Source of the DNA: an uncultured Candidatus Rokubacteria bacterium | Lineage (GTDB): Bacteria > Methylomirabilota > Methylomirabilia > Rokubacteriales > DASRDR01 | Assembly: GCA_963805625.1 (NCBI GenBank) | Contig: CAWDVE010000014.1 | Location: 96,001 to 160,000 of the forward strand | DNA length: 64,000 nucleotides | Reading direction: 5' to 3' | Shown here: piece after piece, positions 5,615 through 54,347 of the stretch | Layout: every line of letters starts with the position of its first letter | Numbering within the stretch: the first letter of the stretch is position 1 | Translations under genes and position numbers: made by a program | The notes under the pieces: model-generated | The model's database searches: none | What the model was told of the DNA's origin: nothing | Seen by the model: only the letters and a program-made list of their open reading frames with translations

Positions 5615-5649
5615 TCGCCCGAGGACTTGCGGACCTGACGATCCGGCCA

Positions 5650-5725: not shown

Positions 5726-5729
5726 GCGC

Positions 5730-21588: not shown

Positions 21589-22029
21589 TCACGGCGAGGG
21601 CGGCGCGGTCCCTCCGGGCATGCGGACGCGGGTCCACATGTTGGCGACGAAGACGATGGCCGACGCAAGCTGACCGAGTCCGCCGAGGGCTGCCAGGGAG
21701 GAGCCGCGGGTACCCGCGGCGGCCGCCGCGAGCTCGCCCAGGACGCGCACGAGGGTCGAGCCCGTCAACAGCCAGTAAACGAGCCAGGCGAGCCCGGGCC
21801 GGTACCGCCCGCCGTCCCGGGCCGGCCGGGGGAACATCCACGTCGCCACCCCGAACACCAGCATGAGCATGAAGCCCACGAGCACGAGATGCACGTGGGC
21901 GGTGATGACCGGCCACGCCACTGCCCGGCCCAGGAGGTTCACCTCGACCGTGATGTAACCGCCCAGGATCAGCCCGAGAAGCAAAAAGGCGAAGCTCGTC
22001 TTGATGTACAGGCGGACCAACGGCGTCAT
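21589..22029 (-). CDS. Four-TM membrane protein related to one heme-copper-oxidase repeat unit
   Basis: Four hydrophobic helices; TAHVHLVLVGFM..VATWMFPR HxH motif. Confidence 0.75.
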   Translation of the reverse strand: MTPLVRLYIKTSFAFLLLGLILGGYITVEVNLLGRAVAWPVITAHVHLVLVGFMLMLVFGVATWMFPRPARDGGRYRPGLAWLVYWLLTGSTLVRVLGELAAAAAGTRGSSLAALGGLGQLASAIVFVANMWTRVRMPGGTAPPSP

Positions 22030-22157
22030 GGCGTCCTCACGGTCCCGGGTGGCCGACGCGAAGCGATGGAAGCACAGGCGTCACGTGGGTGCTGGAGCCG
22101 ACGAGCGCCAGCGTAGCATGGCAACCCGTGTCGAGCGGATGCCGCCTACCGCCGCGC

Positions 22158-23576
22158 TCAGCGGCTCCCGATGCGCGCCGGCGTCCAGGGCGGGTCGAAG
22201 GTCAGCCTCACGTCAACCTCCTCCACGCCAGCCATCCCGAGCACTGCGCGGCGCACCCAGTCGGCCATGACGCCGTGCAGAGGGCAACCCGGAGCCGTGA
22301 GGGTCATGGTGACGCGGACGATGCCGCCCTCGACGGCCACCCCGTAGATCAGGCCCAGATCGACTACCGAGAGTCCCAGCTCCGGATCGACGACCGCGCG
22401 GAGCGTCTCCGTCACCCGCTCCGGCGTGACGGCGGGCGCGGCGTCCGAGCCGCCGACGATCTCGCGTCCGCGCGATGCCCCCCTCTGCCCGCCGGCCGGC
22501 TCGTACGCGCAGCCAGGGTCCTCAGCCAGCGGGTCGCCGGTGACCGCATACGCCCGGGCGCGGCTTCCGCCGCAGCGATCGCGGTACTCGCAGCGGCCGC
22601 ACCGGCCGCCGAGCTGCGTCGGATCGCGAAGCGCCCGAAAGAGCGGATCCTCCCGGTAGACCACGACGAGGTCGCGCTCCCGCGCGTTCGCCACCGGGAT
22701 CGGTAGGAACCCGCTCGGACAGATCTCGCCCCGGTGATCGATGAAGACGAACCCGTTCCCGTCAGTCACGGCCCGGGCCGCGCGGCCGATGGCGTCGGGA
22801 CGCATCACGGCCCGGGCGCCGGCGGAGCCGCCGTCCGCCGGGGAGTCCAGTCGCGCGGCCCGCCGGCGCATGGCCGCGACCCGGAGGTACTGGGGCGCCT
22901 CGGTGGTCTTCAGCCCGAAGGGGGCGTGCTCGGCGAGCGCCGCCGCCCAGTGCAGCACACCCTCGATCTCGCCGGCCGAGAGCGCCTGGTGCACCTGGGC
23001 GCGCCCGACCGGGATGAGGAAGAAGAGAGCCCAGAGCGCCGGCTGGATGGCTTCGATCTGCGGGACGAGAGCCGGCAAGTCGTCCACGGTCTGCCGGCAC
23101 ACCGTCGTGTTGACCTGGAGCGGGAGGCCGAGGGCACGTGCCCGCTCGAGAATCCGCAGCGTGTGGCGGTGGGAGCCGTGCACGCCCCGGAATGCGTCGT
23201 GGGTCGCTGCCGTGGCCCCGTCCAGACTCACCGCCAGTCGGCCCAGGCCCGCGTCGCTGAGCGCCCGCAGCTTCTCCTCCGTCACCAGCGCCGTCCCGCT
23301 CGGGGTCAGCGAGACCGTCACCCCGCGCCGCCGCGCGTGGGCGACCAGGTCCACGATGTCCGGCCGCCGCAGGGGATCGCCCCCGGTGAGCACCAGGACC
23401 GGCGGCGGGTCGCTGAACGCCGCCACGCGGTCGATGAGCCGGCAGCCCTCCTCCGTCGTGAGCTCCGCGGGATCCCGCCGCGGGATCGCCTCGGCCCGGC
23501 AATGGACGCACGCCAGCGCACACGCCCGGGTCGTCTCCCAGATGACGATGAAGGGCGCACGGTCGAACGTGGTCAT
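22158..23576 (-). CDS. Radical SAM/SPASM protein (TIGR04053, AhbD/NirJ-like) fused to a C-terminal DUF59 domain
   Basis: WETTRACALACVHC; SPASM CPSGFLP..CGRCEYRDRCGGSRARA..DPGC; DUF59 VVDPELGLSVVDLGLIY..TLTAPGCP..FDPPWTP. Confidence 0.88.
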   Translation of the reverse strand: MTTFDRAPFIVIWETTRACALACVHCRAEAIPRRDPAELTTEEGCRLIDRVAAFSDPPPVLVLTGGDPLRRPDIVDLVAHARRRGVTVSLTPSGTALVTEEKLRALSDAGLGRLAVSLDGATAATHDAFRGVHGSHRHTLRILERARALGLPLQVNTTVCRQTVDDLPALVPQIEAIQPALWALFFLIPVGRAQVHQALSAGEIEGVLHWAAALAEHAPFGLKTTEAPQYLRVAAMRRRAARLDSPADGGSAGARAVMRPDAIGRAARAVTDGNGFVFIDHRGEICPSGFLPIPVANARERDLVVVYREDPLFRALRDPTQLGGRCGRCEYRDRCGGSRARAYAVTGDPLAEDPGCAYEPAGGQRGASRGREIVGGSDAAPAVTPERVTETLRAVVDPELGLSVVDLGLIYGVAVEGGIVRVTMTLTAPGCPLHGVMADWVRRAVLGMAGVEEVDVRLTFDPPWTPARIGSR

Positions 23577-24880
23577 CGCGGCTCAGCCGGAAGCGGCGCC
23601 GGGACGGGACGGCCGCCCGGGCCGGGGAGCAGGGGGAGGAGGGTCCGCCCCAGCGCGGCCGCGAACGCCACGGCCCCGGCGGCGACGGCGGTGGCCGACG
23701 CCGTGATGGCCGGGCGCACCCCGGTGGCGACTGCGAGGGCGAGCGCGAGCGTGCCGCCCGTCAGAAGACCGTAGGCCAAGCGCTCGGCGGACGGCCAGGA
23801 CAGCTGGGCGAGCATCGGCACCGGCTCGCGGCCGGCGCGTGGCGCGTAGACGCGATACCAGACCAGGAACGGCACGATCTTGAGCATCATGCCCACGATC
23901 GTGAACGACACCCAGCCGCCGAGGGCGATGATGGCGTAGGCCATTGCCGCGCGCGGGCCGCCGTCGAGCGCGAGCATGAGACCCAGCGCGGCGCCCGGCG
24001 CGAGGCACGCGGTCCCCGTGAGCGCGAACCGGAGTCCGCTGTCGACAGCCGGGCGCTTCCGGCGCCGCGCAAAGTGGATCACCCACGTCGCGTGGACCGC
24101 CAGCGCCGCGGCCACAGTGGCGGCACCCGCGACCAGGAGCGTGACGCGCCCGAGAAGCAGGCCTGCCGCCAGCACCGGAACACCCAGTCCGAGTCCCCAG
24201 AGCTGGACCCGCGCCCCGCGGCCGTCGGGCTCCGGTGCAAGCAGGAACATGGGGTAGACCCGCGCCGCGACCCCCAGGATCATCGGCGCGATCCAGCCGA
24301 GGAGGGCCAGGTGAAAGTGGGCCTGCACGGCCGAGAGAACGCCACCCGGGAACACGTCGCGGCCGTGGGTGGCGGCCAGCGTGATGCCAAACCCGACCGT
24401 CAGCGTGAGCCCCGCGAGCCCGAGCGCGAGACTGCGGGCGGTGAACGTCCAGCGCGCCACCGCCCGAAGGGTCAGCGCGACGTTGACCACGTGAGCCAGG
24501 GCGCCCGCGCCCACCAGCGCGGCTGCCCACCCCATGCCCGCCCATCGCCCGGTCCAGAAATGGCTGACCATCCCGACGATACCCGCGACGAGCGCTGTCA
24601 GCTGCCAGCGCGCGAGGCGCTCGCTCCAGAGCGGCCGCTCGATCGCGACCGGGATCAGCTGGTAGCTCGCCCCCATGATCGCCAGCGTGATCCAGCCGAG
24701 GGCAACGACGTGCACGAGGGCGAGGAGCCGCGGGTGGTAGTAGTGCCCCGTCAGCTCGGCGCCGAGGGCGGGAAGGCTGAGCGCGGCCAGGACGAACGCC
24801 ATGGCGGCCGCCCCGAGGTAGGCGAGCGGCAGCGTCACGGACGGAGGGGACGCGGACCCTCGGGTCGGGAGGGGGATCAC
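23573..24880 (-). CDS. Polytopic membrane protein (heme-copper-oxidase-related accessory family)
   Basis: About 12 TM; LVHVVALGW..MGASYQLIP, AHFHLALLGW, GMMLKIVPFLVW. Confidence 0.75.
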   Translation of the reverse strand: MIPLPTRGSASPPSVTLPLAYLGAAAMAFVLAALSLPALGAELTGHYYHPRLLALVHVVALGWITLAIMGASYQLIPVAIERPLWSERLARWQLTALVAGIVGMVSHFWTGRWAGMGWAAALVGAGALAHVVNVALTLRAVARWTFTARSLALGLAGLTLTVGFGITLAATHGRDVFPGGVLSAVQAHFHLALLGWIAPMILGVAARVYPMFLLAPEPDGRGARVQLWGLGLGVPVLAAGLLLGRVTLLVAGAATVAAALAVHATWVIHFARRRKRPAVDSGLRFALTGTACLAPGAALGLMLALDGGPRAAMAYAIIALGGWVSFTIVGMMLKIVPFLVWYRVYAPRAGREPVPMLAQLSWPSAERLAYGLLTGGTLALALAVATGVRPAITASATAVAAGAVAFAAALGRTLLPLLPGPGGRPVPAPLPAEPR

Positions 24881-25416
24881 GCCCGCGAGTCCTCCCGCCA
24901 GATCGCGATGCGGACCAGCCCGGGTTCGGGTTCGTCCGTGGCGTGGCAGAAGCCGCGCTCGTCAAGCTGAGGGTAGAGGAACAGGGGGCGGCGGTCGTGA
25001 AGCACCTCGAGCCGACCCCCGGGCCCCAGCCGCTCGATGGCCTCCAGGGCCCGCACCATCGGCCAGGGTGGCTCCATACCGCGAACGTCGAGACGGATCA
25101 CGCCCTGGTCTCCGCGGACCGGCGGTACGATGGCCGCCGGCGTCGCCTTCGGTGCCGAGGTTGCAGCAGGCGCCTGACGGTAGAACCAGATCCACCAGTC
25201 ACCCGGCGCCCGGCGCTCGGCGCGGTGGGCAAAGCCTCGAGCCCCCAGCACCTTGTAGAGCGGCAGCGGCTCGAATGGAACGTGCAGGACCAGCGCCTCG
25301 TCCGGACCGAGCTCGCCGACGGCCGCGACGATCCTCTGGAGCGGCTCCGCGCCCTGTTCGATGTCCCCTCGGACGTCGAGGTGCCGCTCCGCGGCGAAGC
25401 CCACCGGTGAGCTCAC
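24877..25416 (-). CDS. Tandem DUF2249 domain protein
   Basis: LDVRGDIEQGAEPL..PFEPLPLY..LGARGF and LDVRGMEPPWPM..HDRRPLFLYPQLDERGF. Confidence 0.85.
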   Translation of the reverse strand: MSSPVGFAAERHLDVRGDIEQGAEPLQRIVAAVGELGPDEALVLHVPFEPLPLYKVLGARGFAHRAERRAPGDWWIWFYRQAPAATSAPKATPAAIVPPVRGDQGVIRLDVRGMEPPWPMVRALEAIERLGPGGRLEVLHDRRPLFLYPQLDERGFCHATDEPEPGLVRIAIWREDSRA

Positions 25417-25685
25417 GTCCCGTCTCTCCAGTCAGCATCGAGCGCCTCCAGCACTGTCTCGACGGCGACCCCCGCCGACGCTGCCGCTTGCGAGAGCGTC
25501 AGGCGCCCGCCGCAGCAGGTGTCGATGCCGAACCCCCGCAGGATCTCGGCTGCGCGCGGCGACCGCCGCGCCGCGTCCTTGACGGTCTCCGCGGAACCAT
25601 TGGGGCGACGGCCTTCCGTGCACACCGTGGCGCCCGGGTCGACTGTCACGCCGTGCTTGCATCCACATCCAGATGTCTCGCCCAT
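25413..25685 (-). CDS. DUF542 (ScdA/RIC N-terminal-like) protein
   Basis: AEILRGFGIDTCCGGRLTLSQAA; GAGGAG RBS. Confidence 0.82.
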   Translation of the reverse strand: MGETSGCGCKHGVTVDPGATVCTEGRRPNGSAETVKDAARRSPRAAEILRGFGIDTCCGGRLTLSQAAASAGVAVETVLEALDADWRDGT

Positions 25686-25711
25686 GGGCCTCGTCCTCCT
25701 CGCTGCCGAGC

Positions 25712-27019
25712 CTACGTCGCCCGCGGTCCGCCCCCTATGACCCTGGTCATAGGCCAGCCTCGCCGACGGATGACGGTACCGACGAAGCCCGCTCCCAGAC
25801 AGGCCAGTGCCACCCACACGAGGGCCCCCGAGAACGGCAGGAGCCAGAGGATGGCCTCAACCCCGTAGTCCGCCAGGGCCTCCGAGGTCCGGAGGAGGAC
25901 GGCCGCGAGCAGCGCCCCGAATGCCACCTCGCGCAGTCTCGGCCACGGGAGGGCCACACCCTCGACCACCGGGATCAGCCGGAACCCCATCCCCACGACC
26001 ATCGACGTGAGCAGGCCCACCGTCACGAGGTGACGGAGGGCGTCGGCAAGGAGGCTCAGCGGGACCGCCGCCCAGGCGAGAACCGCGGCGCCTGCCGATC
26101 CCACCGCGGCAACGGCCGCCGCGAGCATCGCCATCCGGAAGAGCCGCGTCTCGGGCCCGCCCCGGGCCAGGAGCGGCAGGGCGCCGCCCGGGGCCCGCCG
26201 GAAGGCGCCGCCGCTCAGGGCAACCGTAGCGACCATCCCCAGGGCGAGGGCCTCCCCCGACCGCTCGAGCGCCGCCCGCGTCACGTCGGACCACGGTCCG
26301 GCGACGCCCACTCCCGCGAGGACGACACCCAGCCCGAGCGCCGCCGGAACCACCCGGGCCATCGTGTCGGGCACTCTCCATCGTGAGACCAGCATCGGCC
26401 CGGCCCTCAGCACGACGCCGACGATCCATCCCACGACACCCCCGTAGATCGCCATCGCGTGCGCGGCCCGCATCCCCCCGACGTCCGGGCCGCCATCCAC
26501 GGTCGCCCAAGCGCGGAGGCCCGCCTCGAGGACGAGGGCCGCGACGAGCCAGGCCGTGGCCGGGGTCAGATGCTTTCGCGTGAGCCGGAGATGCGGCGCG
26601 TCGAGTGCTCGCGCCACCCAGGCGCCGAAGAGCCCAAAGGCGAGCGCCTGGAGTAGCGCGGCCACCACCACCGGCGCGGCCGACCCGGCGGCCGCGCCGG
26701 CGACGCGAAGCCCAAGCGCGGCGCCGAGCGCGACCACGAGCCATCGTGTCCAAGGCGTCACGGCCACCGGTCGTCCGGCGAACCTCGGGACGAGGTGATG
26801 GGCGACGCCGACGATCAGCGTTCCGAAGAAGCCGAAGATCTGCAGATGGGCGTGGAGCCACACGGACTCGACCGGGACGGGGCCCCCGCCCCAGTAGAGC
26901 CGCGTCAACATCCAGGTCCCGAGGGGCGTGCCGACCAGGAGCGTCGTCGCCAGCGCGATCAGGGCGAACGGCCGATAGACGGGCGGCTCACGGACAGACG
27001 GGGCCGGGCCGGACAACAT
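25712..27019 (-). CDS. nnrS: NnrS-family membrane protein
   Basis: YRPF start, WLHAHLQIFGFFGTLIVG, DALRHLVTVG; about 12 TM. Confidence 0.7.
   Translation of the reverse strand: MLSGPAPSVREPPVYRPFALIALATTLLVGTPLGTWMLTRLYWGGGPVPVESVWLHAHLQIFGFFGTLIVGVAHHLVPRFAGRPVAVTPWTRWLVVALGAALGLRVAGAAAGSAAPVVVAALLQALAFGLFGAWVARALDAPHLRLTRKHLTPATAWLVAALVLEAGLRAWATVDGGPDVGGMRAAHAMAIYGGVVGWIVGVVLRAGPMLVSRWRVPDTMARVVPAALGLGVVLAGVGVAGPWSDVTRAALERSGEALALGMVATVALSGGAFRRAPGGALPLLARGGPETRLFRMAMLAAAVAAVGSAGAAVLAWAAVPLSLLADALRHLVTVGLLTSMVVGMGFRLIPVVEGVALPWPRLREVAFGALLAAVLLRTSEALADYGVEAILWLLPFSGALVWVALACLGAGFVGTVIRRRGWPMTRVIGGGPRAT
25734..25753. promoter_or_regulatory. Crp/Fnr-type operator (internal promoter for the DUF542 sub-operon)
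   Basis: CCTATGAC-CCTG-GTCATAGG; centre at -41.5 relative to minus-strand -10 TAGGCT (25714-25709). Confidence 0.75.
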
Positions 27020-27550: not shown

Positions 27551-28141
27551 CTACGCGCCGGTCTTGCCGACAACCTGGAACGGGTACATCCGCGGAATCA
27601 CGAGCGCGAGCGCCGCCGCCGCGACGATTCCCAGGGCCGTGCCTACCAGGAAAAGCGACCAGGTGTTCGGTCGGATGGCCCCGAGGGCCACGATGACGAA
27701 GAGAATCGGCAGATCAAGGAAGTGGGTGAACGTTGGCACGTGCTCCTGTCGGGCTCTCTCGAGCTCGGGGGTGGAGGTTCCCTGCTCCAGGGCAGCGATG
27801 GTCAATCGTCGGAGTCGCATGAAGTAGAGCCGCGTGATCGTGTTCCCTTCGATGAACTCGAACGCGAAGAGAGCCACCATGCCCGCGAGCCACGGCATTC
27901 CCAAGAACGCCCAACCGCCGTAGACCGTCACCGTTAGCCAGGTGCCGGAGCCCAGCAGAAGGAGGGCACCCGGAACCACGAGACCATCATAGAACACCGC
28001 GACCTGGCGGATGCTCTCGGCGAAGAGCTCGAGGTGGTGGACTTGCCGTGACCGCAGATCGGCGTACCAGACGCCAATCAACCCGGCGCCCATGAGCGTC
28101 AAGCCGAGAAGATGGACGAATCTCAGGATGGGGTAGGTGAT
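27551..28141 (-). CDS. DUF2269-family membrane protein (start uncertain)
   Basis: YPILRFVHLLG..DGLVVPGALLLLGSG..FTHFLD..LGAIRP; GGAGG lies 6 nt before ATC at 28141. Confidence 0.7.
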   Translation of the reverse strand: MTYPILRFVHLLGLTLMGAGLIGVWYADLRSRQVHHLELFAESIRQVAVFYDGLVVPGALLLLGSGTWLTVTVYGGWAFLGMPWLAGMVALFAFEFIEGNTITRLYFMRLRRLTIAALEQGTSTPELERARQEHVPTFTHFLDLPILFVIVALGAIRPNTWSLFLVGTALGIVAAAALALVIPRMYPFQVVGKTGA

Positions 28142-28188
28142 CGAGTGCCTCCAGCGTCGGCCGGATGACCGTCCGCCTGTCCCTGCGC

Positions 28189-28809
28189 TCAGTGGTCCCC
28201 TGTCGCACGCAATTGCCCGCCCCAACGAAGGGTCAGCTCCTGCTGGTTCGAGAGCTCCAGCAGAAGGACCTGTCCCGACTCGACCTCCACCGTCGCCGCG
28301 ATACGCCGCTCGGACGACGATGTCGCGGCACCCTTCGCGGGTGCCCCGCCCGCCTCGACGAGCGCCCCTTCAAGGACGTGACGGCCTAGCGGCACCGAGA
28401 GCTCCTCGTACACGAACGTAGGGCCGTCGTGCCGGAGCCCGCTCGGCCGGTAGGTCCTCTCGAGGATGGGCCGGCCGTCCAACGTAACGCGAAGGGTCGT
28501 ATCACGGCGGGTCCCAGTCGCGCCGCTCTGGCCGCCCTGGGGTCGCATGTGCCGCGGGAGCTTCTCCAGCTCCTCCCGCGAGAGCGCGGCACCCGTCTCC
28601 GCGAACGTGGAGACGTGTTTGAAGGCGACCTTGAGCATCGCGACGCCGGGCGGTGTGGCGGCCCACGGGAACGACGAGAAGACGGCGAGGCCCGCAGCAA
28701 CAGCCAGGAAGAGCAGGACGAACCCGGCGAGCCGCCCCGGCCTTGGCCGGCGGTCTTCGAGCACTGGCGGCACCGCCTCTGACGATAGGGGTGCATCCTG
28801 CGCCGTCAC
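28189..28809 (-). CDS. Membrane-anchored hypothetical partner of the cytochrome b fusion
   Basis: GTG overlaps the upstream stop; one TM, then EELEKLPRHMR..LDGRPILERTYRPSGLRHDGP. Confidence 0.75.
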   Translation of the reverse strand: MTAQDAPLSSEAVPPVLEDRRPRPGRLAGFVLLFLAVAAGLAVFSSFPWAATPPGVAMLKVAFKHVSTFAETGAALSREELEKLPRHMRPQGGQSGATGTRRDTTLRVTLDGRPILERTYRPSGLRHDGPTFVYEELSVPLGRHVLEGALVEAGGAPAKGAATSSSERRIAATVEVESGQVLLLELSNQQELTLRWGGQLRATGDH

Positions 28810-30449
28810 GCCGCAAGCCTCCGCGCGAACGCCGCGAGATCGCGGAGGAAACGGTCCACCTCCACCGCCGCGTACCAGCGGGCGACGAGTCGCCCCTCGG
28901 GCAGGCCCTTGAGAGACGGCAGTCGCTGCCCCGAGAGACGTTCCGCGAGCCACTGACTCCCCTCCCGGGCGGAGCAGTTCTCCGGCACGCACCCGGCGAC
29001 GAACACGCCCCGGGCCCCGGCGGCGAGCGTCTTCGTGATCATGTCGGGGTGCAGCATCCCGACGCACGGAAGCCCCATCACCGTGACGCCCGGCAGGCCG
29101 ACCAGGCTCCCTTCCGGCGAGAGAGAGTCGCCGAGGCGGCTCATGAGCCGGCACGCGTAGACGACGACTGGCGGTCCCTCGCCTGCCGCCGAGGCGGCGC
29201 GGAGGCGCCACGTGACGGCCTCACCGAGCACGCTCACCGGCTGGTCGCCGAGGAGGATCCCCGCTGAGTCGCAAGCGCCGACACAGATCCCGCATCCCAC
29301 GCACTTCGCCGGGTTGACGACCGCCACCTGCTTGTAGCGTCCCCCTTCCTGGCGCGGAACCATAACGATGGCCTCGTACGGGCAGTCCTTCCAGCAGCGC
29401 GTGCAGCCGGTGCACGCCGAGTTCTCGATGCGGGCCTGCGGAGGAGCCGGCCCGCGCAAGAGCCACGGGAGCGCGGCGACCACGAGCCCGGTCCCGAAGG
29501 TGAGCGCTCCCCCGACCTTCGGGTCGAGTCCCGTGAGCGGGAAGTAGAAGAAGTAGAACCAGTCGATCGAGACGAGACCCGGGAGGCGCGACAGGTCGGC
29601 CGGCGGGCCCGAGACAGCCGGGCGCACGAGGCTAGCGACGACGAGCGCCGTCCCCGTGACCCACAGCACGACGCGGGGCGGCATGAACCGCGCCCGGGAC
29701 AGGCGCATGACGTGGAACCAGTAGGCCGCCCCCAGGAGAAACGGGATCGAGATGTGCGCGAAGAGCACCAGGAAGAAGAGGAACGTCTGGATGCGCTCGG
29801 AATCCACGAACGTGCGGACGAGCGGCTCGCCGAAGATGGGCAGGACGTCGAGGAGCTTCGCGGTCGTCACGGAGAGGATCTGGGCCTGCACATCCCAGAC
29901 GAGCCAGTAGCCGGTGGCCCCTGTCACCCAGACGAGCGAGAGAAGCGCGAGACCCGAGACCCATCCGATCCAGCGGGCTCCCCAGAATCGGTCGTCGAGC
30001 AGCATCTTCAGCCCGTGGAGCGCCGCGGCCAGGATCGCCGCGTCCGATGCGTAGCGGTGGAGCGACCGCATCAGGGCGCCGATCCCGAGGGGATGGACCA
30101 TGATCCCCTCGATCGAACGGTGGGCGGCCTCGGTCCCCACCCGATAGAACACGAAGAGGTACAGGCCCGTCACGGTAGCGACCGCCAGCGAGAAGACCGC
30201 GATCGTGCCCGAGTGGTAGAGGGGGTTCAGGGACGGGGAGACGATCCGGTCGAGCAGCACCTCCGCCCACTGATAGACGGTGGCGGCCCCGGAGAGCAGA
30301 CGACGGGGCCAGCGCGCCCGGCGGAGCGGGCGCGGCGGAAACGCCAGGAAAGGGCGGCGCGGCACCGGCGGCGCCGTTACCCCTTCCGACCCGGTCATTG
30401 GCGCCCCGACCATCGGGTCGCCGCGGTCGGTCCCGTCGGGCACCGTCAC
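28806..30449 (-). CDS. Cytochrome b - 2x[4Fe-4S] ferredoxin - MvhD/FlpD fusion
   Basis: His pairs LHRYASDAAILAAALH and AHISIPFLLGAAYWFH; DWFY; CTGCTRCWKDCP and CVGCGICVGAC; MvhD-like YAC, LPCVG, AGCVPENC. Confidence 0.88.
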   Translation of the reverse strand: MTVPDGTDRGDPMVGAPMTGSEGVTAPPVPRRPFLAFPPRPLRRARWPRRLLSGAATVYQWAEVLLDRIVSPSLNPLYHSGTIAVFSLAVATVTGLYLFVFYRVGTEAAHRSIEGIMVHPLGIGALMRSLHRYASDAAILAAALHGLKMLLDDRFWGARWIGWVSGLALLSLVWVTGATGYWLVWDVQAQILSVTTAKLLDVLPIFGEPLVRTFVDSERIQTFLFFLVLFAHISIPFLLGAAYWFHVMRLSRARFMPPRVVLWVTGTALVVASLVRPAVSGPPADLSRLPGLVSIDWFYFFYFPLTGLDPKVGGALTFGTGLVVAALPWLLRGPAPPQARIENSACTGCTRCWKDCPYEAIVMVPRQEGGRYKQVAVVNPAKCVGCGICVGACDSAGILLGDQPVSVLGEAVTWRLRAASAAGEGPPVVVYACRLMSRLGDSLSPEGSLVGLPGVTVMGLPCVGMLHPDMITKTLAAGARGVFVAGCVPENCSAREGSQWLAERLSGQRLPSLKGLPEGRLVARWYAAVEVDRFLRDLAAFARRLAA

Positions 30450-31327
30450 CCCCGCTCGGCGAGGAGGCGCGCGAGATCCGCCTCGATGCGCGTCTCCGGG
30501 TGCGCGAGCCCGCGGTAGGTAAAGGCGGCGCGTCCTGCGCGATCGAGCAGCACCACCACGTTGTCGTGGGCCAGCTCGCCGTCGGGCAGGCGCATCACCT
30601 GCACGCGGTGCGCCTCGGCGACCCGCCGCACCGCGGCGGGGTCGCCCGTCAGGAGATGCCAGCGGGGACCGAGACCCCAGCGCGCCGCATGCTCGGCAAG
30701 GACGGCCGGCGTGTCCCGCTCGGGATCGAGCGTCACGGCAACGAAACGCGCAGCCCCGGACTGGCGCGCCTCGAGCCCCTGCAGGCGTCCGAGGAGCGCG
30801 GGACAGGTCGCGTGACAGTTCGTATAGATGAACGTCAACACCGCCGGCGTTCCGCGCAGCGTCTCGGCCGTCACGCGCGCCCCGCGGTGGTCGACCAGGG
30901 AAAATGCCGGTCCAGGCGATCCGTCGCGGATCGGGGCGGGGAGCACCATCGGGGTTGGGGGCATTCCCGTCGCCGAGACCTCGGCGGTCGCGAGAAGCCA
31001 GGTCGCCGGCCCGAGGAAGAGCGCCGCGGCCAGGGCGACGGCGGCTCGACCACGCCACGCGCGGAGAAAGGCGCGGAGCTCGTCCGCGTAGAACAGGCCG
31101 ACCACCGCGACGAACAGCGGCGGCTGGAGGAGCGCCAGGAGCAGCGCGTCCAGCCGGTAGCGCCGAGCCGCGGCGTTCCAGCCGAAGCACGCCGTCAGGA
31201 GCGTGTCCGCCCACGCGCCGAGCCCGGGACCGACGAGAAGGAAGATGACCATGGCCGAGCCCCACACTAGCGCCGCCAGCACGAGGCCGGGAGCGAGGCC
31301 GGCGCGGGACGGCACGAGGCTCACCAT
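30446..31327 (-). CDS. SCO family copper chaperone with N-terminal TM domain
   Basis: FIYTNCHATCP; VTLDPERDTP; LAHDNVVVLLD. Confidence 0.88.
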   Translation of the reverse strand: MVSLVPSRAGLAPGLVLAALVWGSAMVIFLLVGPGLGAWADTLLTACFGWNAAARRYRLDALLLALLQPPLFVAVVGLFYADELRAFLRAWRGRAAVALAAALFLGPATWLLATAEVSATGMPPTPMVLPAPIRDGSPGPAFSLVDHRGARVTAETLRGTPAVLTFIYTNCHATCPALLGRLQGLEARQSGAARFVAVTLDPERDTPAVLAEHAARWGLGPRWHLLTGDPAAVRRVAEAHRVQVMRLPDGELAHDNVVVLLDRAGRAAFTYRGLAHPETRIEADLARLLAERG

Positions 31328-32205
31328 CGTCGGATCGCCACGTCCAGCGCCACGCCCAGGAAGAGCAGGAGGAGGAAGAGGTTGGACGCGTGGAAGCTCT
31401 GAAGGGCGAGCCGTCGATCGGTCGGATGGGCCCGGAGCCCTGCCTGGCGGATCACGAGCAGGCTCCCGCCCACCACGACCCCTAGCAGGAGATACACCCA
31501 GCCCAGGATCCCCAGGGCGAAAGGCAAGATGCTCGCGGTGAGAAGCCCGGCCGTGTTCAGGAGAATACCCCGGGCGGCGCCGGCCTCGCCCTTGACGACC
31601 GGGAGCATCGGGATCCGCGCGCCCGCGTAGTCCTGCTTGTAGGCGATGGCCAGGCTCCAGAAGTGGGAAGGGCTCCAGAAGAAGAGCACGAGCGCGAACA
31701 GGACGGGCGGCAGGCACAGCTCGGGCCGCGCGGCCGAGCCGCCGGCGAGGACGGCGAAGGAGCCGGCCAGCCCGCCGATCACCACGTTGAGCCAGGATCG
31801 CCGCTTGAGCCAGACGGTGTAGACGATGACGTACGTGAACGCGCCGAGGAAGACGTGGAGCCCCACCAGGGGGTTGAGCCGCCAGAATGCGAGGCCCACG
31901 CCGATGCCGACGAGGCCGAGCCCGAGCGCGACGACGTGCCAGACGTGCCGGATGCGCCCCGACGGCAACGGGCGCCGCGCGGTCCGCGGCATGCGCGCGT
32001 CCAGGTCGCGATCGAGAACGTGGTTGAGAGCGCCCGCCCCCCCGGCCGCGATCACCGTGGCGGCGAACAGGAACAGGAGCGGGGCCAGTGCCGTACCACC
32101 AGCCGCCGGCGCCGGGGGGAGGGTCGCCAGGTAGCCGAGGACGGCCGCGAGCCCGATGAACGTGCCGACCCGGAGCTTGAGCGACTCGACGTACGCCGAG
32201 ACCAT
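31321..32205 (-). CDS. ctaB: Protoheme IX farnesyltransferase (heme O synthase)
   Basis: NHVLDRDLDARMPRTARRPLPSG; YTVWLKRR; WSPSHFWSLA..DYAGARIPMLP. Confidence 0.93.
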   Translation of the reverse strand: MVSAYVESLKLRVGTFIGLAAVLGYLATLPPAPAAGGTALAPLLFLFAATVIAAGGAGALNHVLDRDLDARMPRTARRPLPSGRIRHVWHVVALGLGLVGIGVGLAFWRLNPLVGLHVFLGAFTYVIVYTVWLKRRSWLNVVIGGLAGSFAVLAGGSAARPELCLPPVLFALVLFFWSPSHFWSLAIAYKQDYAGARIPMLPVVKGEAGAARGILLNTAGLLTASILPFALGILGWVYLLLGVVVGGSLLVIRQAGLRAHPTDRRLALQSFHASNLFLLLLFLGVALDVAIRRW

Positions 32206-32215
32206 CGCTCCCTCC

Positions 32216-33685
32216 TCACCGCCCTCGCCGAGTGAGAGGGATGCCCACGTTGAGCACGAAGGCGAGCCCACCCAGGATAGCGAGAAGCGACCCTAACCCC
32301 ATCAGGTTCATAGCCACCAGCGCCTGGGCGTTGGCCCAGGTGAAGCCGAACGTCTTCCGCGGAGCTCCGTGGCCTCCTGCCCAGTGCATCCCCGCCATGA
32401 TCCCGAGAAGCCCGAGGCCGTAGAGGTACGGCTGCCAGCGCGCCACGCGCGCGCTCCAGAGCCGTCGACCCGAGATCTCGAGAAGGAGGGGCGCCAGGCC
32501 CATGTAGGCGAGTGTCACCGCGCCGACCATGCCGTGGTAGTGGGCCGGTACGCGCGTGTCCTGGTTGAAGCCGACGACGCCGAGGATGCCTCCCGTCGCG
32601 AACAGCGCCAGGGACAGCGCCGTTCCGGAGAACACCGGGCTCCCCCATGGCAGCCGGCCCGGCCCGCCGCGGCGGCGCCAGACCGCCACCAGCATGAGCC
32701 CGATCGGCACGGCGCCGGCGCCCACCCCCCAGAAGGTCGCGATCGTGACCAGGTGGTTCACGAGGAGCGCCTCGGGCGCGTACGCGAGATACAGCGCCGC
32801 GGTGACGAGGAGGAAGGGCATGAGTCCCCACACGCAGGCGCGCACAACGCGGCGGGGCGGGGGCACGATCCCCACCGCCACCCCGGCGGCGACGAGCCAG
32901 ACCGCGATCGTCCCGGCCACGTGGAGGAACTGCAGGAGATGCCCGGGTCCCCAGAAGAGGGCGCGGAGACGATAGCCGAACGGGACCTCGGCATGGAGTC
33001 GCGCGAGCGACAGAGCCATCACGCCGAGCGCCAGCAGCAGCGCCAGCGCCCCCACCGCCATCGCCAGGGCTTCCGGCACGTCCATCCCGCCGGGTCCGCC
33101 GGCCACTGGCGCGCGACGCCGGCCGCGCCCATACGCGACCAAGTAGGCGACCGCCTGCACGCCGACTCCGACCCCCGTCAGCGTCAGGCCGACCCAGAAG
33201 AGCGGATGGTCGATGGCCGGCACGTAGTCGGACAGATAGGGCTTCCCCACCCCGGTGAACGCCGGGACCGCAAGCAGCGCCGTGCCCGCAGTCGCCACGC
33301 CAAGGCCAGCCCAGGACCACCGGGCGCTGAGCGGCAGGTTCGCCCGCCAGGCGACGTAGACCCAGAGGGCGCCCGAGAAGGCGAGGAACCACACGGTGAA
33401 CGCGAACGTGACGTGGCCCACCAGCGCGAGCTGGAAGGCGCCGGCGGAGAACAGGCGGTAGACCACCGGCGTGCGCGCGAAGGCGGCGACCGCAGCGAAC
33501 AAGCCCGCCACGACCAGCGAGCCCACCGCCAGCCCGAGCCATCCGGCCAGAAGCCGTCGAGTCATCGCGGGGATCAAGCCGGGGGCGAGAGCCCGATCCC
33601 CGCGAGCGACAGCGCCAGTCCCGTTCCACATCGCCCCCGGAGAAAGCCCGGAGACCGACAAGGGGCCGTCGAAAGGCGTCATCAC
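32216..33685 (-). CDS. Heme-copper oxidase subunit I paralogue lacking the CuB His-His pair
   Basis: LALVGHV, FWGPGHLLQF and VPAHYHG present; no HH in the helix VII region. Confidence 0.78.
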   Translation of the reverse strand: MMTPFDGPLSVSGLSPGAMWNGTGAVARGDRALAPGLIPAMTRRLLAGWLGLAVGSLVVAGLFAAVAAFARTPVVYRLFSAGAFQLALVGHVTFAFTVWFLAFSGALWVYVAWRANLPLSARWSWAGLGVATAGTALLAVPAFTGVGKPYLSDYVPAIDHPLFWVGLTLTGVGVGVQAVAYLVAYGRGRRRAPVAGGPGGMDVPEALAMAVGALALLLALGVMALSLARLHAEVPFGYRLRALFWGPGHLLQFLHVAGTIAVWLVAAGVAVGIVPPPRRVVRACVWGLMPFLLVTAALYLAYAPEALLVNHLVTIATFWGVGAGAVPIGLMLVAVWRRRGGPGRLPWGSPVFSGTALSLALFATGGILGVVGFNQDTRVPAHYHGMVGAVTLAYMGLAPLLLEISGRRLWSARVARWQPYLYGLGLLGIMAGMHWAGGHGAPRKTFGFTWANAQALVAMNLMGLGSLLAILGGLAFVLNVGIPLTRRGR

Positions 33686-33689
33686 GGGG

Positions 33690-35363
33690 TCACCGCACGA
33701 ACCAGATCGCGGCCAGCCACTTCCAGTTGAGGAAGTAGTAGATGACGAACGCAGCCAGGAATACGAAGACCAGGATCATCGTCCCGGAGATCGGCGTGTG
33801 CTTGCCGCCCTCCGGGGCCATCGCCGCGAGCGGGACCGCGCCCGGCGTGTCGGGCACGCGGCTCCCGAAGAAGACGGACACGACCGTGAGCAGCACGTAA
33901 AGCCCGCCGCCCGCCGCTGCCAGGAGTCCGCCGATCCCCATCAGCCCGAGGAAGAAGAACGCGGCCGGCTCGATAGGCGGCTGGAAGATCGACGAAGCGA
34001 ACTGCACGTCCCAGTGACGGCGGGGGATCGCGTAGGAGCCGGCGGTCGTCATCCCGCCGGCGAACAGCGCGATCCCGATGCCGAAGAGGTAGATCTGGGC
34101 AGTGGCCAGGCGCGGCCAGATGATCCGGCGCCGGAAGATGAGCGGCACGACGTAGTACGTGAGCCCCATGAAGGCGAGCGTCGTGCCGGCCACGACCGTC
34201 GAATGGAAGTGCCCGGGGATGCGGAGGGTGTTGTGGGAGATGATGTTGACCTGCTCCGCCCCGAAGGTGACGCCCGTGATGCCGCCCATGAACCCGAACA
34301 GCGCGAGCGACAGCGCGAGCGCGGCGAACCCGGGGTTGCCCCACGGCGCCTTGGCCAGCCACTCGAAGAGGCCCTTCGAGAGCCCCTTTTTCCGCTGGGC
34401 GACCTCGACGGCCGCCGGCACCGTCATCCCGTGCACCATGCTCGCCAGCACCGCGAGGTACATCGCGTACGAGGTGTTGAAAACCTTCCACGCCGGGGAC
34501 AGCTGGGGATCGACGAGGAGGTGATGAGCGGATGCGAGGTTGATGAACAAGATGTAAAGGAGAAATGCCGTCCGGCAGACCTTCTCGTTGATGGGGACGG
34601 CGCCGACCGTCAGCGTGGCGAGCAGGTACCACACTGCCACCATGGCCGTGACGTTGATCTGCTGCGACGAGTGCCCGAGGCCCCACCAGACCAGCCGGTA
34701 CATGCCGGAGTCGAGATTCTGGATGATCCCGAGCGACCAGAGCCACGTCGGGATGTAGATGATGGCACCGTGCGCGAGGGTCGCGACGGCGATAATCGCG
34801 GCCGCGGCGGCGCCGAAGGTCACTAGCGGGATCGAGCCCTCGTAGGTCCGCTCGGCGCGGGCCACCACGAGGGTGGCGAAGAAGTTGGAGACACCGATCA
34901 GTGCCCCGACCGCGAAGAGGATCCAGCCGAGGTAGAAATACGAGACGGCTCGAAGCGGCACGTAGGAGGTGAACATGACGTCAGCGCCGCCCCGGAGGAT
35001 CGCGACGTCGATCAGGAGGGACCCCGCCACCATGAGCCCGAACCCCACCCATCCGACCCGGGGCCAGGCCACGCGGCTTCCGAGCAGGATCGGCCCCGCA
35101 AAGTACAGGACCGCCACCTCGAAGAAGATGATCCAGAAGATGAGCATGTTCATCCCGTGGAACGTGAGCGCCCGGTAGTACATCGCCGGCCCGAGCAGGT
35201 GGACGGCCGGCCACCGGGTCAGGACCACGAGCACCGCCGCGATGCCGCCGAAGAGGATCGCCAGGACCCCGGCCACGGCGTGGACCTTGATCAGGCGCTC
35301 GGCCGCGTCGTGGACGCGAAGACCGGTCTGGGCGCAGGTGCGAAACGTCGCTGTCCCGTTCAT
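33690..35363 (-). CDS. Heme-copper nitric oxide reductase subunit I, eNOR type
   Basis: LTFHG, WWGLGHSSQQINV (Gln where O2 reductases have the cross-linked Tyr), SAHHLL, PGHFH. Confidence 0.85.
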   Translation of the reverse strand: MNGTATFRTCAQTGLRVHDAAERLIKVHAVAGVLAILFGGIAAVLVVLTRWPAVHLLGPAMYYRALTFHGMNMLIFWIIFFEVAVLYFAGPILLGSRVAWPRVGWVGFGLMVAGSLLIDVAILRGGADVMFTSYVPLRAVSYFYLGWILFAVGALIGVSNFFATLVVARAERTYEGSIPLVTFGAAAAAIIAVATLAHGAIIYIPTWLWSLGIIQNLDSGMYRLVWWGLGHSSQQINVTAMVAVWYLLATLTVGAVPINEKVCRTAFLLYILFINLASAHHLLVDPQLSPAWKVFNTSYAMYLAVLASMVHGMTVPAAVEVAQRKKGLSKGLFEWLAKAPWGNPGFAALALSLALFGFMGGITGVTFGAEQVNIISHNTLRIPGHFHSTVVAGTTLAFMGLTYYVVPLIFRRRIIWPRLATAQIYLFGIGIALFAGGMTTAGSYAIPRRHWDVQFASSIFQPPIEPAAFFFLGLMGIGGLLAAAGGGLYVLLTVVSVFFGSRVPDTPGAVPLAAMAPEGGKHTPISGTMILVFVFLAAFVIYYFLNWKWLAAIWFVR

Positions 35364-35375
35364 CGGGGGGCCTCC

Positions 35376-35900
35376 CTACTCGACGATGATCTTGCCCACC
35401 ATCTGGTGGTGCCCGATCCCGCAGAATTCGTTGCAGACGGCGTAGACCTCACCCTTCTCGGTCGGCGTGACCGTGAGAACGTACTCGTAGCCGGGCAGCA
35501 CCATGAAGTTCAGATTCAGGGGGAACAGCGAGAACCCGTGAACCAGGTCGAGCGAGGACAGGTGGAGTCGGTAGGTTTCACCCTTCTTGAGTTTGACCAC
35601 CGGGTACCACTGCCACAGCCGGCCCAGCATGTAGACGTCCGCGCCGGGACCGGGCGCGACGACCGGGAACCCGCGGTCCTCCCCCACCTTGGTCTTCTGG
35701 ACGTGGGCCTCCACCTTCGCCTGGTAGTCGGCCGCCGTGATCCGGTAGGTCTCGAAGGACGGGTTCTGGCCGCCCTTCCAGTGCCAGAGCGGCATCATCG
35801 CGAAGAGGATCAGGCACCATGCCAGTGCGATGCCGAGCCAGACCTTCTCGCTCCGGTCGACCTTCTTCCACCACACGCCCTTGAGCGCCTGGATGCTCAT
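35376..35900 (-). CDS. CuA-containing subunit II (B-family/eNOR type)
   Basis: One TM; DLVHGF; CNEFCGIGHHQM CuA motif. Confidence 0.92.
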   Translation of the reverse strand: MSIQALKGVWWKKVDRSEKVWLGIALAWCLILFAMMPLWHWKGGQNPSFETYRITAADYQAKVEAHVQKTKVGEDRGFPVVAPGPGADVYMLGRLWQWYPVVKLKKGETYRLHLSSLDLVHGFSLFPLNLNFMVLPGYEYVLTVTPTEKGEVYAVCNEFCGIGHHQMVGKIIVE

Positions 35901-35909: not shown

Positions 35910-36092
35910 CTACTTGGGGAGCTCGAACGGAGGGGCCAGCGGGATGCTGGCGATCTCGAGCAGTCCCCAGATCGTGTAGAACACGATCGGGACCGCGAGC
36001 CCCAGGACGAGCAGGAGGAAGATGTTGTCGAAGAAGATCTGCGCTAGTGGAATCCGCTCGCGTGGGTTGTCCGGGGGTGCTCCGTCCGTCAT
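35910..36092 (-). CDS. Small single-TM subunit (IIa-like)
   Basis: GGAGG RBS; QIFFDNIFLLLVLGLAVPIVFYTIWGLLEI; first gene of the operon. Confidence 0.78.
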   Translation of the reverse strand: MTDGAPPDNPRERIPLAQIFFDNIFLLLVLGLAVPIVFYTIWGLLEIASIPLAPPFELPK

Positions 36093-36164
36093 GCCGCGCC
36101 TCCTCCGGGAGCCACTGGCCGAGGCTCCTCGGGTGGAAGGCTAAGCGCCAGTGCCCCCCTGCTC

Positions 36165-36182
36165 CTATGACGAGGGTCATAG
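36165..36182. promoter_or_regulatory. Crp/Fnr-type operator upstream of the eNOR operon
   Basis: CTATGAC-GAGG-GTCATAG; centre about -42.5 relative to minus-strand -10 TAGCCT (36143-36138). Confidence 0.75.
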
Positions 36183-36356
36183 AGCGAGGTGCCCATGCCG
36201 GGATGGGGTGTTCGCATGAGCCTGGCCGCCGGAGACCCACGGCGAGCCGGCAGGGTGAGGTGCCGACGCCCCAGGTGGGGCGACGGCGCACCTCCACGGC
36301 GTCCGTCGTGCATGGCAGAGGACGGGCCCCGTGGGATTGGCGGGGGCGAGGCCACG

Positions 36357-36372
36357 TGGCACTTCTCGTGCA
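36357..36372 (+). promoter_or_regulatory. Sigma54 promoter upstream of the oxidoreductase operon
   Basis: TGGCAC-TTCTC-GTGCA, GG-N10-GC, about 44 nt before ATG 36416. Confidence 0.65.
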
Positions 36373-36415
36373 ATCAGGAGATGGGGCTCGCTTACGCGGG
36401 CCGGAGGTGAGTCGT

Positions 36416-38410
36416 ATGGCCGTCGCCCACGTCTCGGATCCGCTCCCGGCGGTCTCGTACGCGGGGCTGCCGGCGACGGCCGACGGCTCCGAGATGGTGG
36501 TCTGGGTGGAGACCCAAGTTTCCCAGGGGGCGTGCGCCTATCCGATCACGTCGTCGACCAACATGGGCGCGGGCTACCAGGCCGCCCAGGCCGCCGGCCG
36601 GAAGAACCTATGGGGCGAACCCCTCTTCTTCCTCGAGCTCGAGTCCGAGCACTCGTCGGCATCGACCTGCGAGGGCTTCGCCCTCGCCGGCGGGCGCGTC
36701 ACCAACTTCACCTCCGGTCAGGGCCTGGTCCTGATGAAGGAGGTGCTCTACACGATCGCTGGCAAGCGGCTGCCGGCGGTGTTCCACATCGGCGCCCGGG
36801 CACTGACGTCTCAGGCCTTGAACGTCCACTGCGGCCACGACGACGTCATGGCGGTTGCGGACACGGGCTGGGGGATCCTTTTTGCCCGGAACGCTCAGGC
36901 TGTCGGCGACCTCGCCCTGATCGCGCGGCGCGCTGCGGAAGAGTCGGAGACCCCGTTCCTCGTCGTCCAGGATGGGTTCCTCACCACCCACACCGTCGAG
37001 AACGTCCGCCTCCCCGAGCCCGAGCTGATGAAGGACTTCGTCGGGGATCCCTACGCCCTCACACGGCTCCGCAACCTCATGAACCCGGCCAAGCCCATCA
37101 TGTCCGGCGTCGTGCAGAACCAGGACGCCTACATGAAGGGCAAGGTCGGCCAGCGCTTCTTCTACGACCGGCTGCCGGGAATCCTAGCGCGGGTCACGGC
37201 CCGCTACGGCGAGCTGACCGGACGTCGATACGGCCTCGTGGAGACCTATCGCCTCGAGGACGCAGACTGGGCGATCGTCGGAATGGGCAGCCTGATCGAC
37301 ACCGCGATGGCGACCGCCGACTGGATTCGGCGCGAGAAGGGCTGGCGCGTGGGTACCCTCCACGTCACCGCCTTCCGTCCATTCCCGGGGCGGGACATCG
37401 TCGCCGCCCTCCGTCACGTCGCCGGCGTGGCGGTCATCGAGCGGATGGACAACCCGGGGGCGCAGTCCAATCCTCTCACCCTCGAGGTCAAGGCTGCGTT
37501 CGCCGACGCCGTGATGGACGGGACGGGGGACCCGGGCGATCTGCGCATCCCGGCAATCCACTCCGGTGTCGCCGGGCTTGGCAGCCGCGATATCCGGCCC
37601 GGCGACTTCGTGGCGACCGTCGCCAACATGGTCCGTCGCGGGTCCCGCATCTTCGCGCTCGGGATCGATCACCCCCTCGCGCTCCACCGCGAGGAGGACC
37701 CCGACGTGCGCCCCCCAGGGGCCTTCTCGATGCGCGGGCACTCGGTCGGCGGCTTCGGATCGGTCGCCACCAACCGGATCATCGCGACGGTCCTCGGCGA
37801 TCTCTTTCATCTGCGCGTCCAGGCCTATCCGCTTTACGGGTCGGAGAAGAAGGGCCTGCCCACGACCTACTATCTGACGGTCGCCGACGACCCCATCCAC
37901 GTCCACTCCGAGCTCACGCACGTCGACTTCGTGCCGCTCAACGACGTCAATGCGTTCCGGCTCGGCAACCCGCTGGCGGGGCTGACCGAGGGCGGCATGC
38001 TCTTCGTCCAGAGCACGGCGTCGGACCCCGAGGCCATCTGGGCGGGCATCCCCGAGGGCGCTCGCCAGCTCATCGCCCAGCGTGACATCCGCGTCCTCGC
38101 CCTCGACACGCTCAGGATCGCCAGCGAGGTTGCCGGCCGGCCCGAACTCCGGCAGCGGATGCAAGGGATCGTCCTCCTCGGGGTCTTCCTGCGGGTCACG
38201 CCCTTCCGCGAACAGCGCGGGCTCGACGAGGACGCCGTCTTCTCGGCCGTCGAGCGCTCCCTCCGGAAGGTCTTCGGCAAGCGCGGCGAGCAGGTCATCC
38301 GGGACAACATGACCGCGGTCCGGCGAGGCTACGAGGAGGTCGTGGAGGTTCCCAGGGAGGTCATGCGGGGCGCGGGGCGATCGGCCACGAGGAGCAGGGT
38401 CGGTGGATGA
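36416..38410 (+). CDS. 2-oxoacid (pyruvate):ferredoxin oxidoreductase, NifJ-like N-terminal half (alpha+gamma)
   Basis: AYPITSST, ESEHS, FTSGQGL, HIGARALT, DGFLTTH, FRPFP, SVGGFG, YGSEKKG. Confidence 0.9.
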   Translation: MAVAHVSDPLPAVSYAGLPATADGSEMVVWVETQVSQGACAYPITSSTNMGAGYQAAQAAGRKNLWGEPLFFLELESEHSSASTCEGFALAGGRVTNFTSGQGLVLMKEVLYTIAGKRLPAVFHIGARALTSQALNVHCGHDDVMAVADTGWGILFARNAQAVGDLALIARRAAEESETPFLVVQDGFLTTHTVENVRLPEPELMKDFVGDPYALTRLRNLMNPAKPIMSGVVQNQDAYMKGKVGQRFFYDRLPGILARVTARYGELTGRRYGLVETYRLEDADWAIVGMGSLIDTAMATADWIRREKGWRVGTLHVTAFRPFPGRDIVAALRHVAGVAVIERMDNPGAQSNPLTLEVKAAFADAVMDGTGDPGDLRIPAIHSGVAGLGSRDIRPGDFVATVANMVRRGSRIFALGIDHPLALHREEDPDVRPPGAFSMRGHSVGGFGSVATNRIIATVLGDLFHLRVQAYPLYGSEKKGLPTTYYLTVADDPIHVHSELTHVDFVPLNDVNAFRLGNPLAGLTEGGMLFVQSTASDPEAIWAGIPEGARQLIAQRDIRVLALDTLRIASEVAGRPELRQRMQGIVLLGVFLRVTPFREQRGLDEDAVFSAVERSLRKVFGKRGEQVIRDNMTAVRRGYEEVVEVPREVMRGAGRSATRSRVGG

Positions 38411-40776: not shown

Positions 40777-40784
40777 CCGCCCCG

Positions 40785-47924: not shown

Positions 47925-47942
47925 GAGCGGGGAGGACTGTTC

Positions 47943-49226: not shown

Positions 49227-49255
49227 GGCCTGAGGAAGGCGAGGAGCGCCCGGAC

Positions 49256-51991: not shown

Positions 51992-51992
51992 C

Positions 51993-52628: not shown

Positions 52629-52632
52629 GCAA

Positions 52633-54344: not shown

Positions 54345-54347
54345 GTC

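Follow-up and report, generated by a model that had tools for sequence, protein, structure and literature searches.

What does a bc1-type cytochrome b do in an eNOR operon when no Rieske protein is encoded with it? The question is raised by a stretch of 64,000 nucleotides from an uncultured Candidatus Rokubacteria bacterium (GenBank assembly GCA_963805625.1, contig CAWDVE010000014.1, positions 96,001 to 160,000; hereafter the window), in which a gene for a cytochrome b fused to ferredoxin and MvhD-like domains (the fusion; 28806..30449, minus strand) and a gene for a single-helix membrane protein (the partner; 28189..28809, minus strand) stand in the operon of eNOR, one of the families of nitric oxide reductases among the heme-copper enzymes. 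This enzyme is a common N2O producer, present in 547 GTDB genomes according to Table 1 of PMC11214002, and the assays described in that work used artificial donors. A redox unit whose inheritance parallels that of eNOR almost one-to-one is an obvious candidate for supplying the enzyme with electrons in nature or for filling a gap in its assembly, and in the present case the unit would be a bc1-type cytochrome b put to new use with no Rieske protein. We conclude that the fusion and its partner are very probably a dedicated redox accessory of eNOR.

Co-occurrence of the fusion with eNOR

Phylogenetic profiling against eNOR, proposed as a check alongside the original prediction for this locus, ties the two closely together. 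The whole-genome profile covers 151 genomes, all from the phylum of the window, metagenome-assembled and mutually related; the fusion was scored as present where a match spanned nearly the whole fusion profile, and the count of eNOR subunit I excludes two B-family-like matches (33-35% identity). On this basis the fusion occurs in 19 of the 151 genomes and eNOR subunit I in 21. Every one of the 19 genomes with the fusion also encodes eNOR, and in 18 the two share a contig; the fusion was found in 0/130 eNOR-less genomes, and one genome (G091) has two eNORs together with two fusions. eNOR without the fusion is limited to two genomes, G125 and G061, and the contig of the latter stops within sco.

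Furthermore, we compared 94 related loci (15 from genomes, one from a plasmid and 78 metagenomic, these last drawn from the best 80 of 522 confirmed stretches). Judged by its residue pattern, the heme-copper enzyme of the window operon is eNOR, as had been claimed: subunit I (33690..35363, minus strand) has Q235 at the position of ba3 Y237, such that the cross-linked Tyr is replaced by Gln, and the K-channel set is complete, with S308 at S309, H311 at T312, Y246 at Y248 and E18 in subunit II (35376..35900, minus strand; PF00116), a pattern across both subunits that fits the eNOR column of Dataset S1 in PMC11214002. Among the 94 loci the eNOR Gln is present in 44/44 readable subunits I, the CuA ligands of subunit II (H121, C156, E158, C160, H164 and M167) are kept in 44/44 and E18 in 43/44. 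At least one eNOR-operon gene is found in 84/94 loci; eight of the remaining 10 are cut at most 500 bases upstream, one starts with a partner and a NuoF-like gene, and one (L021, 6020-6894) is a fusion remnant with an internal deletion, from which eNOR genes are absent. Minimal operons (L103-L106) consist of the small subunit, subunits II and I, sco and the fusion, with no ctaB or subunit-I-like "scaffold" gene between them. Pairwise identities of the fusion and of subunit I correlate over 41 loci with a Spearman coefficient of 0.85, a value that includes kin, has no control and speaks for co-inheritance only. The operon is also borne by a Defluviimonas plasmid, and a cultured host, M. magneticum AMB-1, is reported to have both the fusion (PMC4122944) and eNOR. 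Overall, sequence comparison points to a widespread accessory of eNOR, the function of which is predicted.

Architecture of the fusion and its partner

Pfam, conservation, AlphaFold2 modelling and a fold search concur in describing the fusion as a cytochrome b with helices A-F and two heme b sites, to which a 2x[4Fe-4S] ferredoxin and an MvhD-like domain are joined C-terminally. Its likelier start is GTG 30449, which adds 12 aa relative to ATG 30413; residues are numbered here from the latter (535 aa), unless GTG numbering is indicated. The GTG start shares the bases GTGA with the stop codon of sco, and an overlap of the same kind joins the end of the fusion to the GTG of the partner, with four bases in each case. 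Matches to Cytochrome_B, two copies of Fer4 and FlpD are all above cut-off, and the AlphaFold2 model (predicted local distance difference test, pLDDT, 92.6; predicted template modelling score 0.90) features six long helices, then the ferredoxin and alpha/beta domains, with bc1 cytochromes b as its top fold-search matches. We aligned the window protein with 147 representatives of at least 440 aa, taken from the best 150 of 418 matches at E 1e-30 in a 50%-identity library (148 rows). The heme ligands His119/133 and His220/234 form two H-x13-H pairs and are kept in 148, 148, 148 and 147 of these rows, and the eight Cys of the two [4Fe-4S] motifs in 147-148. Cys421, Cys450, Cys475 and Cys480 of the MvhD domain, which would carry a [2Fe-2S] cluster, align with Cys of a solved MvhD, PDB 5ODC chain D; the complete set is present in 117/148 rows and the fourth Cys is missing from 29/148. 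The fused architecture, with its paired heme His, two [4Fe-4S] motifs and four-Cys MvhD domain, thereby stands as originally proposed. The Fe-S part as a whole, residues 338-545 in GTG numbering, is one block matching HdrA2 571-768 (NF040770, E 5.5e-23), and because the protein has six helices and basic N-terminal, bc and de loops, the Fe-S domains would be located on the cytoplasmic side.

The quinol-oxidizing site is where the cytochrome b departs from convention. The original prediction had placed DWFY at the PEWY position; the motif is indeed degenerate, and the exact register differs, as PEWY aligns with IDWF (283-286). The Qo pattern P(E/D)W(Y/F) is not matched, and the acid alone is conserved (D284, in 143/148 rows, its equivalent also being kept in aligned paralogues of the fusion), with the Trp kept in 63/148 rows and the Pro not among the eight commonest residues at its position (146/148 rows). 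Across the alignment no heme ci Cys of the b6f type was found, most rows having His, Gln, Tyr or Arg at position 67; position 239, where bc1 has its Qi His, is not conserved, and no high-potential centre is conserved near Qo. A search for fusions of 938-2675 aa returned none at E 1e-20, which is weak evidence, and an SCO-cytochrome b fusion (P0197, 1/150 representatives) was discounted: it forms a single-member cluster with no transmembrane helix between the domains and resembles the product of artefactual read-through. Contigs from RNA libraries of soil runs cover pieces of both fusion and partner; their strand and level are not shown, and they may be DNA.

The description of the fusion as Rieske-less was upheld. 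There is no Rieske motif within the window, tblastn with the genome's own Rieske protein finds one in 0/94 loci, and the single plausible motif match (L041) belongs to an unrelated gene on the opposite strand; the Rieske protein of the genome is paired with its own PEWY cytochrome b, in a separate Rieske/PEWY cytochrome b/cytochrome c operon. MvhD normally links HdrA to hydrogenase or formate dehydrogenase. HdrA and hydrogenase genes were said to be lacking from the window, and we concur: the NiFe hydrogenase matches of the genome are on other contigs, and a search with the HdrA2 model finds no HdrA in the genome and matches only the fusion gene, itself the sole MvhD- or HdrA-like match. Elsewhere, the genome encodes nirK, a ctaA-like gene and a true B-family oxidase without such a fusion.

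As to the partner, homology indicates that it is the C-terminal part of the same protein, normally fused and here encoded by a separate gene. Its profile matches the C-terminus of 107/150 representatives (106/112 of those of at least 600 aa), and hhalign of the partner against the C-terminus of the fusion family gives a probability of 100 and E 5.4e-41. Topology prediction yields one transmembrane helix, in agreement with the earlier claim of a one-helix protein coupled to the fusion, and the model (pLDDT 86) features this helix, a predicted helix G, plus an outward beta-sandwich. Its fold matches are generic beta-sandwiches (best Z 8.3, root-mean-square deviation 3.1 over 98 residues). A Rieske, cupredoxin or cytochrome f fold was considered and is not among the fold matches listed, a missing match that excludes nothing. 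No metal motif is conserved in the partner across relatives, and a His-Met copper site was rejected as not conserved, being Asn-Met in many relatives, with His65 present in 64/69 separate partners vs 38/91 rows of the fused set.

The model of the fusion-partner complex, a further check proposed at the outset, scored 0.75, as compared to 0.00 for the best of three controls. The mark used is reached by 116/157 solved and 2/215 mismatched pairs, counts that calibrate the present model only roughly, given the custom alignments and heme ligands used here, and the helix part of the partner may pass it because it resembles solved cytochromes b. At least 92% of contacts are shared between runs, with a partner pLDDT of at least 75. 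The modelled contacts on the fusion fall at residues 179, 195-204 and 274-292 (ef and cd loops); the partner helix packs against helices B and E, its end touching residues 281-286 of the degenerate Qo motif, and the N-terminal stretch contacts the MvhD domain. In the ordinary cytochrome b of the genome, helix F is succeeded by helix G where, in the fusion, the Fe-S domains start. The partner is thus predicted to bind at the helix-G position and to cap the degenerate Qo loop, and the helix-G alignment and the complex model together suggest a cytochrome b of seven helices whose loop after helix F holds the ferredoxin and MvhD domains as an insert. In bc1 structures, from which the Rieske docking face was placed, the same face would receive the Rieske head, such that the partner beta-sandwich may cap it. 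Subunit II, included in the complex modelling, has no confident contact with the partner among those listed, and the control in which the fusion was replaced scored 0.00, which is no evidence either way.

Proposed direction and sink of the electron flow

The reading that we consider likeliest, and advance tentatively, is that the two genes form one Rieske-free membrane wire in which electrons would travel outward from a cytoplasmic donor to eNOR via cytochrome c and CuA, much as the original prediction had suggested. NAD(P)H or ferredoxin would reduce the MvhD [2Fe-2S] cluster via a flavoprotein, the electrons would then pass through the two [4Fe-4S] clusters to heme bH and on to heme bL, and CuA would be reached via cytochrome c, for eNOR turnover or for reductive activation. 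We favor outward flow because some relatives have, in addition, a paralogue with FAD and NAD domains, a gene resembling nuoF or a cytochrome c at the C-terminus. The paralogue, of cytochrome b-[2Fe-2S]-FAD-NAD composition, is present in 12/94 loci (four of them Pfam-checked) and the NuoF-like gene in 3/94; in L018 (6422-11381) and L079 (294-3663) a NuoF-like FMN/[4Fe-4S] gene lies between two cytochrome b fusion copies, an arrangement that suggests a heterodimer with an NADH-binding subunit. On the acceptor side, 8/147 representatives, known from proteins alone, end in a class I cytochrome c in which a Met is a candidate ligand, and small CxxCH genes occur within 2 kb downstream in 12/94 loci; these include L002's c'-like gene and some that come from nitrite reductase clusters. 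The cytochrome c fusions favor CuA delivery as the sink; sequence cannot choose between feeding turnover and supplying maturation. With NADH at about -320 mV, cytochrome c and CuA at about +250 mV and a membrane potential of about 150 mV, only outward flow would be downhill through the whole chain, and inward transfer from quinol or cytochrome c to NAD+ would be doubly uphill unless quinol is bifurcated.

As a dedicated donor, divergent pyruvate:ferredoxin oxidoreductase was tried and rejected: the adjacent arrangement occurs in only 1/15 close loci, and distant homologues lie several kb off in 2 of the 15. In the window these genes flank a CBS-domain gene at 36047-40498 (plus strand), divergent from the eNOR operon.

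Several observations weigh against the outward wire. Neither a flavoprotein nor a cytochrome c is encoded in the window operon, and the NAD(P)H module is found in few loci, 15/94 having the paralogue or the NuoF-like gene, to which L086 adds a divergent soluble FNR-ferredoxin gene. The scaffold is present in all 12 loci with the FAD/NAD paralogue, which may therefore serve the scaffold instead. The genome's own Rieske/PEWY cytochrome b/cytochrome c operon makes a second route to CuA unneeded, and an outward wire costs membrane potential. A real exception to the linkage is G125, where an eNOR-type enzyme stands without sco, fusion or partner. Purified R. marinus eNOR, the fusion status of which lies outside this comparison, is described as two bands with heme a only, and in solved Hdr complexes the MvhD cluster is described as feeding flavin, the opposite direction (PMC12350162). 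The G125 eNOR-type pair (GHPAQQ; L100 (G125:C69), 5479-7843) lies within a cluster of molybdoenzyme genes, which by inspection resembles those for nitrate reductase or nitrite oxidoreductase.

Among the alternatives, the one that survives best, possible if somewhat unlikely, retains the outward direction and has the wire act at low flux as a CcoG-like assembly reductase, keeping SCO, copper, the CuA site or a heme-modifying step reduced while the enzyme is put together and playing no role in turnover. The gene order speaks for it, sco immediately preceding the first cytochrome b gene in 61 of the 76 loci with enough upstream DNA, as do the joint lack of sco and fusion in G125 and the addition of a P-type ATPase and a DsbD_2-SCO fusion in L093. 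It would also accommodate a purified two-band eNOR that is described as active with TMPD (N,N,N',N'-tetramethyl-p-phenylenediamine)/ascorbate, and CcoG itself, which acts in the assembly of cbb3 oxidases, is described in PMC7558416 as a Cu(II) reductase bearing two [4Fe-4S] clusters and an Ig-like domain on the periplasmic side. However, the shift from His-Met to Asn-Met and the presence of His65 in only 38/91 fused rows leave the partner without a conserved copper motif, the fused cytochrome c (8/147) fits electron delivery to CuA better, and no CcoG likeness appears among the Pfam or NCBIfam matches listed, direct comparison being outside the scope of the analysis.

Two further readings turn on quinone, and we hold each of them improbable. 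In the first, quinol would be oxidized without a Rieske protein at the degenerate Qo site, one electron going to cytochrome c, CuA and NO and the other inward to NAD+ or ferredoxin. The retention of D284 in the fusion and its paralogues is in keeping with this, in Hdr complexes electrons enter a bifurcating flavin through MvhD (PMC12350162), and the Ferrigenium preprint (bioRxiv 10.64898/2026.01.22.701106) proposes a quinol:NAD+ idea and reports the proteins in the proteome; the Qo Pro is nonetheless not among the common residues at its position and the Trp is kept in a minority of rows, no high-potential centre is conserved nearby, and transfer to NAD+ would run uphill in potential and against the membrane potential. 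In the second, equally improbable, the unit would only exchange electrons with the quinone pool, as an NAD(P)H/ferredoxin:quinone reductase or a quinol:cytochrome c dehydrogenase, part of it regulatory or vestigial, tuning the supply of eNOR. The conserved cytochrome b core and Qo acid and the loss of the fourth MvhD Cys from 29 rows agree with such a role, whereas the near-invariant eight ferredoxin Cys and four His and the unconserved Qi His position do not, and a general quinone reductase would not need strict linkage to eNOR. Most doubtful of all is a complex III substitute, a Rieske-free supercomplex with eNOR in which quinol would be bifurcated and NO reduction would drive low-potential electrons to NAD+ or ferredoxin via MvhD.

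Operon neighbors and comparison with known systems

The other genes of the eNOR operon, all on the minus strand, comprise an SCO1/SenC copper chaperone (30446..31273; PF02630) translationally coupled to the fusion, the heme o synthase CtaB (31321..32271; TIGR01473, over cut-off), the scaffold (32216..33685; PF00115) and a small one-helix subunit (35910..36092; one transmembrane helix, detected in 41/94 loci), which we take to be IIa-like. CtaB is an optional member, absent between subunit I and sco in L103-L106, and so is the scaffold, found in 38/94 loci. The latter conserves a His in helix II (H91, in 34/35 homologues), a His-x2-Gln in helix VI and a His-x-His in helix X (H249, Q252, H382 and H384, in 35/35) and lacks the His pair of helix VII; on this pattern it could bind two hemes without a three-His metal site, as a candidate heme chaperone or heme-modifying enzyme. 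The idea that it replaces CtaA was dropped because CtaA and scaffold co-occur in several loci, with no mutual exclusion.

A DUF2269 gene (27551-28225, minus strand) and a cytochrome gene do follow the partner, as first noted. The latter is of the c'-like four-helix type (PF01322, E 0.0075, below cut-off). Their membership in the module does not stand: each is found in 1/94 loci, 57 of which had at least 1.5 kb downstream, and both are missing from a 93% identical relative (L012), leaving them as local extras outside the module. For the DUF2269 gene, a clear start codon is lacking around the point where its Pfam match begins, and related contigs show single-base indels at 28184-28188. No promoter-like site was found, and terminator-like sites are at chance level. 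The close relatives are recorded as Rokubacteria/Methylomirabilota.

Beyond the operon, the genes at 21589-27019 (minus strand) look like a nitrosative-stress and heme cluster, with NnrS-like, DUF542 and DUF2249 genes, two COX1-like membrane proteins and a fusion of TIGR04053 radical SAM and DUF59-type domains; a second TIGR04053 gene lies at 40725-41900. By inspection, open reading frames at 46770-55148 (plus strand) are reminiscent of benzoyl-CoA reductase or 2-hydroxyacyl-CoA dehydratase genes, accompanied by two activator-like genes, and of a molybdopterin-enzyme set. A hemerythrin gene is found in 28 related loci, often directly after the partner (e.g., L049, 2324-2719), and that of the window is distant from the operon (56019-56597).

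The architecture of the fusion is already in print. Kao and Hunte 2014 (PMC4122944) named a 'PDWF-FeS' clade in which cytochrome b is joined to a 4Fe-4S domain and MvhD, in M. magneticum AMB-1 as well as in Turneriella parva, with a sister form bearing ferredoxin and flavin domains in Alicycliphilus; as described there, the clade shares with the fusion the combination of cytochrome b, 4Fe-4S domain and MvhD, the lack of a Rieske gene in the cluster and the lack of a known function, and differs in its PDWF/PDWY motif vs IDWF, the likeness being one of described architecture. Dibrova et al. 2017 (PMC5600118) describe large cytochrome b proteins without assigned function, of which subfamily H may correspond to the PDWF-FeS group. 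In the portions consulted, neither work was found to mention an eNOR link or the partner, and the text of the eNOR paper (PMC11214002) and of its preprint, as far as consulted, discusses no such gene, the gene maps lying outside this comparison. We found no functional study, and none on the partner or on the breadth of the linkage, in a literature in which subscription journals were mostly not covered. Closest in setting is the eNOR operon of Ferrigenium straubiae (bioRxiv 10.64898/2026.01.22.701106), described as II, I, heme o synthase, sco, scaffold and two cytochrome b/Fe-S genes, with a supercomplex proposed; the preprint calls the latter genes unusual and possible Ferrigenium markers and, in the part consulted, does not name MvhD, whereas in the present comparison the MvhD form is a widespread companion of eNOR and here occurs without an FAD/NAD paralogue.

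Among characterized systems, the fusion resembles the bc1/b6f cytochromes b in its fold, its four His in H-x13-H pairs, its ef loop and its helices A-F, and differs from them in having no Rieske or cytochrome c1/f gene, a degenerate Qo motif, no heme ci Cys, an insertion of Fe-S domains behind helix F, and a helix G that is predicted to come from the partner. The C-terminal ferredoxin and MvhD part of HdrA2 is matched by the fusion block, the four Cys of which align with those of PDB 5ODC chain D and which is instead carried on a membrane cytochrome in a genome without HdrA. With CcoG, as described, the fusion shares a membrane location, two [4Fe-4S] clusters, a periplasmic beta-sandwich (predicted for the partner) and a gene beside a heme-copper enzyme, whereas it has b hemes and an MvhD domain, no conserved copper motif was found in it, and no homology appears among Pfam and NCBIfam matches. 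To these comparisons the present analysis adds the profile against eNOR, the prediction that the partner supplies the helix G and cap belonging to the cytochrome itself, and a module that no longer includes DUF2269 or the c'-like cytochrome.

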